This document shows, piece after piece, positions 32,318 through 32,695 of a stretch of DNA of 64,000 bases. Numbering within the stretch: position 1 is the first letter of the stretch; every line of letters starts with the position of its first letter. The position numbers and the translations under genes were made by a program. Under the pieces are notes generated by a model. That model ran no database searches. It worked only from the letters and a program-made list of their open reading frames with translations, and was not told where the DNA came from. Source of the DNA: Escherichia coli O157:H7 (GTDB lineage Bacteria > Pseudomonadota > Gammaproteobacteria > Enterobacterales > Enterobacteriaceae); the NCBI RefSeq assembly GCF_013167455.1, contig NZ_CP038328.1; one strand, written 5' to 3'.

Positions 32318-32457
32318 AAGGAGTCCCTCCGCACTGTCTGAAACAGTACAGAAATGTCTTCAGGCGTGGCGAAGCCTTACCTGAAGGTAATAAAGCTGAG
32401 CAGGGACGTTAAAACGTCACGGCCTTACGCATCCGGTAACGCCGTGAAAAGACGGGC

Positions 32458-32511
32458 TTACCGGAAAAGTTTTAATCTCCGTCGAGGGAGAGGCGTGGGA
32501 TCAGGTTCCAT
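32458..32511 (-). CDS. mgtL: mgtA leader peptide (17 aa, proline-rich)
   Basis: [17 protein letters not shown] encoded in the mgtA 5' leader, verified codon by codon on the minus strand. Confidence 0.8.
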
Positions 32512-32695
32512 ATAACCTCCGGTAAGTGAAAAAAGCGCCGCAAATAATAAGGAGAATCCAATAATATTCGTAGCATCTATGGCGATATAATACCTGCTGG
32601 CAACTAAACCAACGATAAACCAGACTTTACCCATTGCTGAATGCACGGGTAAAGTTAGGCTCAAATAATTAAACAACACGTTACAGGACAACAGG

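Follow-up and report, generated by a model that had tools for sequence, protein, structure and literature searches.

The mgtL-mgtA regulatory leader of Escherichia coli O157:H7: a PhoP-type promoter, a short leader peptide and two alternative RNA folds

Results

The intergenic region between mgtA and treR

In the 64-kb window (the whole stretch of Escherichia coli O157:H7 DNA analyzed here), positions 32318..32695 make up the exact 378-nt gap between the ATG of mgtA (32317, minus strand) and the ATG of treR (32696, plus strand). The regulated gene, mgtA (29621..32317, minus strand), codes for a Mg2+-importing P-type ATPase: the ORF matched the equivalog model TIGR01524, whose title is 'magnesium-translocating P-type ATPase', at 1607 bits, and it is annotated as such in RefSeq. 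The divergent neighbor treR (32696..33643, plus strand), coding for the trehalose operon repressor, was identified by an equivalog match to TIGR02405 (590 bits) together with its RefSeq annotation, and treB follows next after treR. An earlier note on this DNA had named both genes, and these matches bear out the two identities. The short gene mgtL (32458..32511, minus strand) lies within the gap, and RefSeq gives it the name 'mgtL: mgtA regulatory leader peptide MgtL' in both O157:H7 and K-12, where it occupies the same place (MG1655 locus tags: mgtL, b4702; mgtA, b4242).

A 601-nt query around mgtL matched chromosomes of E. coli O157:H7 and O145 with 100% identity and had a match in all but one of 5426 complete E. 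coli genomes (5425). The 263-nt leader (see below) was present in 5424 of the 5426 genomes, and 5267 of the 5424 E. coli records having a match were at least 99% identical to it. We also observed that, of the 5426 complete genomes, one or two lack the leader region, that a few genomes carry two copies, and that three matches in the E. coli collection are to records typed as plasmids.

Comparison with K-12 MG1655 revealed differences at 2 of the 378 intergenic positions and at none in the transcribed leader; the two strains do not differ in the transcribed RNA, in mgtL, in the stems, in the PhoP box or in the -10 hexamer. Position 32653 is T here and G in K-12 and lies towards treR, upstream of the transcription start, and position 32600, one of the 12 spacer nucleotides that separate the PhoP box from the -10 hexamer, is C here and T in K-12 and in Escherichia albertii. 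No functional difference is expected from either substitution. The interval is thus the regulatory leader of mgtL-mgtA, a well-studied element of E. coli: it is known and annotated, Rfam has a curated family for it, and the same sequence has been the subject of experiments. The earlier identification of an mgtA regulatory leader is confirmed by a full-length match to the Rfam family RF01056, by the RefSeq annotation of mgtL, and by 100% identity of the leader to that of K-12. The extent first given to the leader, 32318..32695, was too generous: 32318..32580 (263 of the 378 nt) is leader, and the remainder, 32581..32695, is promoter and intergenic DNA.

The promoter region and the treR side

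A direct repeat, GGTTTA-tcgtt-GGTTTA (GGTTTAtcgttGGTTTA), is located at 32605..32621 (minus strand) and overlaps the -35 position of the mgtA promoter. This PhoP box is perfect, and it was the only match in the 64-kb window, compared to 0.13 expected when up to one mismatch is permitted. The published mgtA PhoP box, tGGTTTAtcgttGGTTTAg, is identical to it (PMC5775216). The hexamer TATTAT at 32587..32592 (minus strand) would, by its position, serve as the -10 element of a PhoP-dependent promoter. In an alignment of eight species, the second half-site of the box is invariant, as are the hexamer bases T49, A50, T51, A53 and T54. The box and the hexamer are spaced 12 nt apart, and this spacing defines the 'architecture I' class II PhoP promoters of Salmonella, of which mgtA is the type example; the criterion is (T/G)GTTTA-N5-(T/G)GTTTA approximately 12 nt upstream of the -10 hexamer, overlapping -35 (PMC3335776). 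By its sequence, the mgtA promoter fits this PhoP-activated architecture, and the binding of PhoP and the dependence on it are taken from the literature (PMC5775216; PMC3335776; PMC5740661). We place the transcription start at about 32580 (minus strand), approximately 7 nt after the -10 hexamer and accurate to within 1-2 nt, which gives the 263-nt leader, compared to a leader length of 264 nt in Salmonella (PMC6460261).

A consensus sigma-70 scan of both strands detected no promoter, that of treR included; the lack of a consensus match is expected because the mgtA promoter is activator-dependent and has no -35 hexamer. Only 115 bp separate the mgtA start (about 32580) from the treR ATG (32696), a distance at which the treR promoter would have to sit within the mgtA promoter region or run into it. 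A report by Yamamoto from 2002 deals with divergently overlapping promoters and reportedly concerns mgtA and treR. It is plausible that the mgtA region is shared with the treR promoter in this overlapping manner, as proposed in the earlier note. In Shigella, the identical PhoP box is also recorded for treR (PMC5775216).

Structure of the leader RNA

The leader transcript (32318..32580, minus strand; 263 nt) folds with a minimum free energy (MFE) of -87.3 kcal/mol (z = -4.2 relative to dinucleotide shuffles), and 0 of 200 shuffles folded as well. Rfam RF01056 (Magnesium-II), which covers stem-loops A and B, matched 32411..32526 (minus strand) over its entire length (model positions 1-115 of 115) with 125.8 bits (E = 6.8e-26; gathering score, 40 bits). 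No other Rfam family reached its gathering score within 28000..36000, and no other cis-regulatory match lay nearby.

In stem A, leader nt 55-65 pair with nt 114-124 and enclose mgtL. The 5' arm (CUUACCGGAGG; 32516..32526, minus strand) is invariant in 12 species and holds the Shine-Dalgarno (SD) sequence of mgtL, GGAGG (32516..32520, minus strand), which is positioned 4 nt before the AUG. The 3' arm (the UUUUCCGGUAAG region; 32457..32467, minus strand) contains the last codons and the stop codon of mgtL and doubles as the 5' strand of stem C. Stem-loop B (32417..32447, minus strand), present in the MFE structure and marked by compensatory changes, is the 'attenuator' hairpin of the high-Mg2+ conformer, and the alternative stem-loop C (32432..32465, minus strand), built by pairing of stem A's 3' arm with stem B's 5' arm, belongs to the low-Mg2+ read-through conformer. 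The A/B versus C alternative is the published switch (PMC11552253).

When the 5' arm of stem A was barred from pairing, stem C formed at -83.0 kcal/mol compared to -87.3 kcal/mol, i.e., 4.3 kcal/mol above the MFE. When a ribosome footprint was imposed on Pro codon 5 or Pro codon 9 in equilibrium folding, stem A persisted and no stem C appeared. Since these footprint folds yield no stem C, the switch would have to be kinetic and co-transcriptional; and since they retain stem A, the published stalling model is not reproducible by simple thermodynamic blocking. That the leader would change conformation with Mg2+ and regulate mgtA by doing so is carried over from published experiments on the identical K-12 sequence and on Salmonella.

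Two further hairpins precede the mgtA SD and are conserved, with some compensatory changes: a distal hairpin (32358..32386, minus strand), and the last leader hairpin (32329..32351), which together with the mgtA SD GGAGGGA (32324..32330) occupies 32323..32351 (minus strand), folds and has compensatory pairs. At the opposite end of the leader, we noticed an A/U-rich hairpin at leader nt 3-47 (32529..32578, minus strand) followed by a U6 run (nt 47-52; 32529..32534) just before stem A. We considered this 5'-proximal hairpin with its U6 run as an early intrinsic terminator and rejected it, as RNAalifold gave no consensus structure in seven species and the U-run is not conserved. The segment 32529..32578 (minus strand) also holds conserved blocks beginning CACAAA and resembling TATAAT.

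Conservation of the two folds across Enterobacterales

Species-representative genomes were scanned with a degenerate 14-base pattern for the start of mgtL, ATGGANCCNGANCCCAC, which returned at least 120 loci, most of them chance matches. Among the matches listed there were 11 true orthologues, confirmed with Rfam at 42.8-127 bits, from Escherichia albertii, two Citrobacter, four genomes labelled Enterobacter, Superficieibacter, Shimwellia, Pluralibacter and a soil MAG; the matches listed included no locus from Salmonella, Klebsiella or Yersinia. Ten of the 11 orthologous leaders are situated directly upstream of an ORF with a conserved mgtA-type N-terminus (approximately 900 aa in eight loci, and shortened by the end of the locus in two), and the eleventh leader runs off its locus. 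The RF01056 element therefore lies in the 5' leader of a gene for an mgtA-type Mg2+ P-type ATPase both here and at 10 of the 11 orthologous loci.

We scored pairing on a MAFFT alignment of the 12 leaders that had not been fitted to any structure. For stems A and B, 95% of the alignment cells were paired, compared to 38-50% when the partners were slid, and there were seven compensatory pairs, all in stem B, where compensatory double changes were seen in 7 of 11 pairs across the 12 species. For stem C, 87.7% of cells were paired, compared to 20-52% with slid partners, and four pairs were compensatory. The core shared by stems A and C (CUUACCGG / CCGGUAAG / UUACCGG) is almost invariant. Such invariance is expected because this sequence must satisfy two pairings as well as the SD and the stop codon, and by itself it speaks neither for nor against pairing. 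Both conformers are conserved across the 12 species, and the two folds are mutually exclusive. The two checks that the earlier note had named came out in its favor: alignment revealed conserved leader structure in the 12 Enterobacterales leaders, and RNA structure prediction placed stems A and B in the MFE and the alternative stem C approximately 4 kcal/mol higher.

mgtL and the sensing of Mg2+

The leader peptide mgtL (32458..32511, minus strand; 54 nt) consists of 17 codons and a stop codon, exactly as translated in the earlier note, and contains an EPDP motif and Pro at codons 3, 5, 7 and 9. Its DNA and its translation are identical to the K-12 b4702 CDS and to O157:H7 WP_001387276.1. In the 12 leaders mgtL is 15-17 codons long, and its internal gaps are of 3 or 6 nt, i.e., multiples of three. 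The stop codon in all 12 species is a UAA within CCGGUAAG, in the 3' arm of stem A, and the middle and C-terminal residues vary among the orthologues. The N-terminal M-(D/E)-P-(D/E)-P-T of the retrieved set was fixed by the search pattern, which spans these first six codons; the independently built Rfam consensus has the same N-terminal bases highly conserved. Judging from these patterns (indels in threes, a fixed stop position and a conserved N-terminus), mgtL is under coding constraint.

In E. coli, the EPDP motif of MgtL destabilizes the translating ribosome, and more so at low Mg2+ (10.1101/2021.02.02.429294). EttA counteracts this destabilization and lowers mgtA transcript levels, and an E2Q/D4N mutant of MgtL abolishes expression of a downstream mgtA fusion (PMC11282234). 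By analogy with these published results for E. coli MG1655, mgtL would be translated here as well, with an efficiency that sets mgtA expression (PMC11282234; 10.1101/2021.02.02.429294).

We are confident that the mgtA control region comprises a PhoP-activated promoter and a 263-nt leader carrying the mgtL upstream ORF (uORF) and the Magnesium-II two-fold switch. The leader would adopt one of two mutually exclusive states, one with stems A and B, in which stem A surrounds mgtL and sequesters the mgtL SD, and the other with stem C. When cytoplasmic Mg2+ is sufficient, the ribosome would translate mgtL to the stop codon in the 3' arm of stem A; the A/B state would then prevail, leaving the pyrimidine-rich tracts that flank stem B exposed, and transcription would end inside the leader. 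When Mg2+ is low, the ribosome would stall at, or drop off from, the EPDP/Pro codons near the N-terminus of MgtL; the 3' arm of stem A, now free, would join the 5' arm of stem B as stem C, and RNA polymerase would read into mgtA.

The literature explicitly still treats direct sensing of Mg2+ by the RNA and sensing through translation of mgtL as a question (PMC11552253). The leader could be a pure Mg2+ riboswitch, in which the RNA binds Mg2+ directly and moves between A/B and C without translation of mgtL, leaving mgtL a secondary or modulatory part; we hold this possible but doubtful. Rfam does class RF01056 as a riboswitch aptamer. The coding constraint on mgtL described above argues against this explanation, as does the loss of downstream mgtA fusion expression upon mutation of E2 and D4 of MgtL (PMC11282234). 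Direct binding of Mg2+ and sensing through mgtL are not mutually exclusive.

Termination within the leader

No intrinsic terminator (a G+C-rich hairpin followed by a U-run) was detected in 32250..32760; nor does this interval hold such a hairpin and U-run 3' of mgtL, as a trpL/pyrL-type attenuator would have. A U6 run occurs once (32529..32534), ahead of mgtL, and it is not conserved. Tracts rich in C and poor in G occupy leader nt 67-100 (within mgtL) and nt 163-198 (just 3' of stem B). The latter, a pyrimidine-rich tract at 32383..32418 (minus strand) in which C minus G reaches +7 in 30-nt windows, is a candidate rut site and holds the invariant GUCCCUG (32401..32407); the role as a rut site is suggested by analogy with the description of Salmonella mgtA and of corA (PMC11552253).

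Published transcript ends from K-12 fall within the leader. The Term-seq 3' end 4467490 (PMC7815308) corresponds to window position 32452, 6 nt past the mgtL stop codon, which means that a short leader transcript of approximately 129 nt exists. A second 3' end, 4467576 (PMC7815308, supplement), corresponds to 32366, in the 3' arm of the distal hairpin and 49 nt upstream of the mgtA ATG, and was given a Rho score of 1.56 ('Yes') and an intrinsic terminator score of 1.46 (PMC7815308).

The earlier note had described the system as attenuation. That description stands for Salmonella, where attenuation is Rho-dependent; in E. coli the data on Rho conflict. We infer Rho as the terminating factor in the E. 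coli leader, and with the published data in conflict the point is unsettled. Down-regulation in the E. coli leader might instead be Rho-independent, arising from pausing, from RNase decay of the untranslated leader, or from occlusion of the mgtA ribosome-binding site (RBS), an explanation that we regard as unlikely. By rho R66S ChIP-qPCR, the Rho termination score for E. coli mgtA was 1.0 although RNA polymerase occupancy drops, and the authors of that study point out that R66S may simply not affect the mgtA terminator (PMC5499598). Reviews likewise caution that the Rho mechanism of Salmonella 'may not be conserved in E. coli' (PMC12360218; PMC11552253). On the other side, bicyclomycin data identified a significant Rho termination region around the 3' end of the leader (1.56; PMC7815308), and the lack of an intrinsic terminator combined with the presence of C-rich, G-poor tracts also argues against the Rho-independent routes.

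Occlusion of the mgtA RBS, one of these routes, draws on a conserved motif, GU(C/U)CCUG, that all 12 leaders carry 6-12 nt past the 3' end of the Magnesium-II element and that is invariant in the eight-species alignment. In the E. coli MFE structure, GUCCCU pairs with the mgtA SD (GUCCCU/AGGGAC; 32401..32407 with 32323..32330, minus strand). The energies of the duplex between GUCCCUG and the mgtA SD were, in 10 of 11 species, no better than those of composition-matched shuffles, and we therefore rejected an anti-SD role for GUCCCUG as unsupported. The motif may simply belong to the C-rich rut tract. We consider it very unlikely that the E. coli leader is partly unlike that of Salmonella, either through attenuation without canonical loading of Rho or through GU(C/U)CCUG acting as an anti-SD sequence that occludes the mgtA RBS, which would be an undescribed translational layer.

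The proline codons of mgtL

The system had also been called Mg2+/proline-responsive. Of this label, 'proline-responsive' derives from Salmonella and is disputed (PMC5740661). Taken further, the label would make the leader primarily a proline or osmotic sensor in which the Pro codons of mgtL report charged tRNA-Pro. The Pro residues at codons 3, 5, 7 and 9 are conserved in most orthologues, and the Salmonella literature proposes effects of proline limitation and of EF-P (PMC5740661; PMC6460261). The effect in E. coli, on the other hand, is attributed to Mg2+-sensitive destabilization of the ribosome by acidic and Pro residues (PMC11282234; 10.1101/2021.02.02.429294), and a primarily proline-sensing leader seems to us quite improbable.

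A 17-codon ORF is by itself not above chance, since ORFs of this length are common by chance, and its context is; conservation, annotation and experimental evidence all oppose, and have already refuted, the reading of mgtL as a chance ORF without function, to which we give practically no credence. The mechanical ORF list extends the mgtL frame to a 113-aa ORF with a GTG start (32458..32799, minus strand), which would favor that reading; the extension begins upstream of the promoter, inside sequence antisense to treR, and we rejected it as an artifact of a frame that stays open through the promoter into the treR antisense sequence, not a gene.

Other features of the window

Judged from collinearity with NZ_AP018488.1, a further classical leader-peptide system, the pyrBI attenuator with its leader peptide pyrL, would be found nearby, with pyrL at about 27409..27543 (minus strand), approximately 2 kb past the 3' end of mgtA. 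A tRNA-Leu(CAA), presumably leuX, is located at 8415..8499 (minus strand), and in the matching O157:H7 record the genes next to the tRNA-Leu are those of a site-specific integrase, an IS3-family element (IS1203-like) and hypothetical proteins; this order suggests that 1..8400 is a tRNA-associated genomic island. An Rfam ALIL frameshift pseudoknot at 5944..6060 lies 870 nt off its position in the matching O157:H7 record; given this displacement, the island differs from that of strain PV15-279. Five Rfam matches to naRNA4 (REP-derived; 15542..15713, 39436..39506, 42735..42812 and 48975..49053, minus strand) and matches to the sRNA families Ysr276 (14514..14708), ES239 (63329..63451), STnc450 (58666..58723) and ES036 (58544..58586) resemble the usual annotations of intergenic repeats and sRNAs in E. 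coli.

Discussion

The closest relative of the E. coli leader among characterized systems is, besides the identical K-12 leader, that of Salmonella enterica mgtA, which, as seen through the papers that cite the original reports (Cromie 2006; Park 2010; Hollands 2012; Gall 2016), is approximately 264 nt long with mgtL inside stem A. Both have the A/B versus C folds, carry a PhoP box separated by 12 nt from the -10 hexamer, and lack an intrinsic terminator; they differ in that Rho dependence has been demonstrated in Salmonella and is equivocal in E. coli. Salmonella MgtL begins with MDPEP, not with MEPDP as in E. coli.

The corL-corA leader of E. coli and Salmonella shares a three-way junction, a uORF inside stem A whose translation responds to Mg2+, OFF (A, B) and ON (C, D) folds that exclude one another, and a pyrimidine-rich rut region flanking stem B (PMC11552253). 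It differs in serving another gene, in having another uORF (with a single Pro), in its Rho score of 3.3 in E. coli, and in the lack of promoter control by PhoP. The M-box of Firmicutes (ykoK, Magnesium-I; RF00380) resembles the mgtA leader in providing Mg2+-responsive control of Mg2+ transporters, including those of the mgtA and mgtE types; unlike the mgtA leader, it has an unrelated RNA fold and an intrinsic terminator and lacks a uORF. No Rfam match to RF00380 was found in 28000..36000.

The sole live question that this locus touches is whether Rho terminates transcription in the E. coli leader as it does in Salmonella, and the literature already recognizes it. As a discovery the leader matters little; its value is that of a positive control, in which a known leader-peptide and RNA-switch system was recognized from raw sequence. 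In the biology of E. coli it is an ordinary leader, one that switches on a magnesium importer under magnesium limitation.
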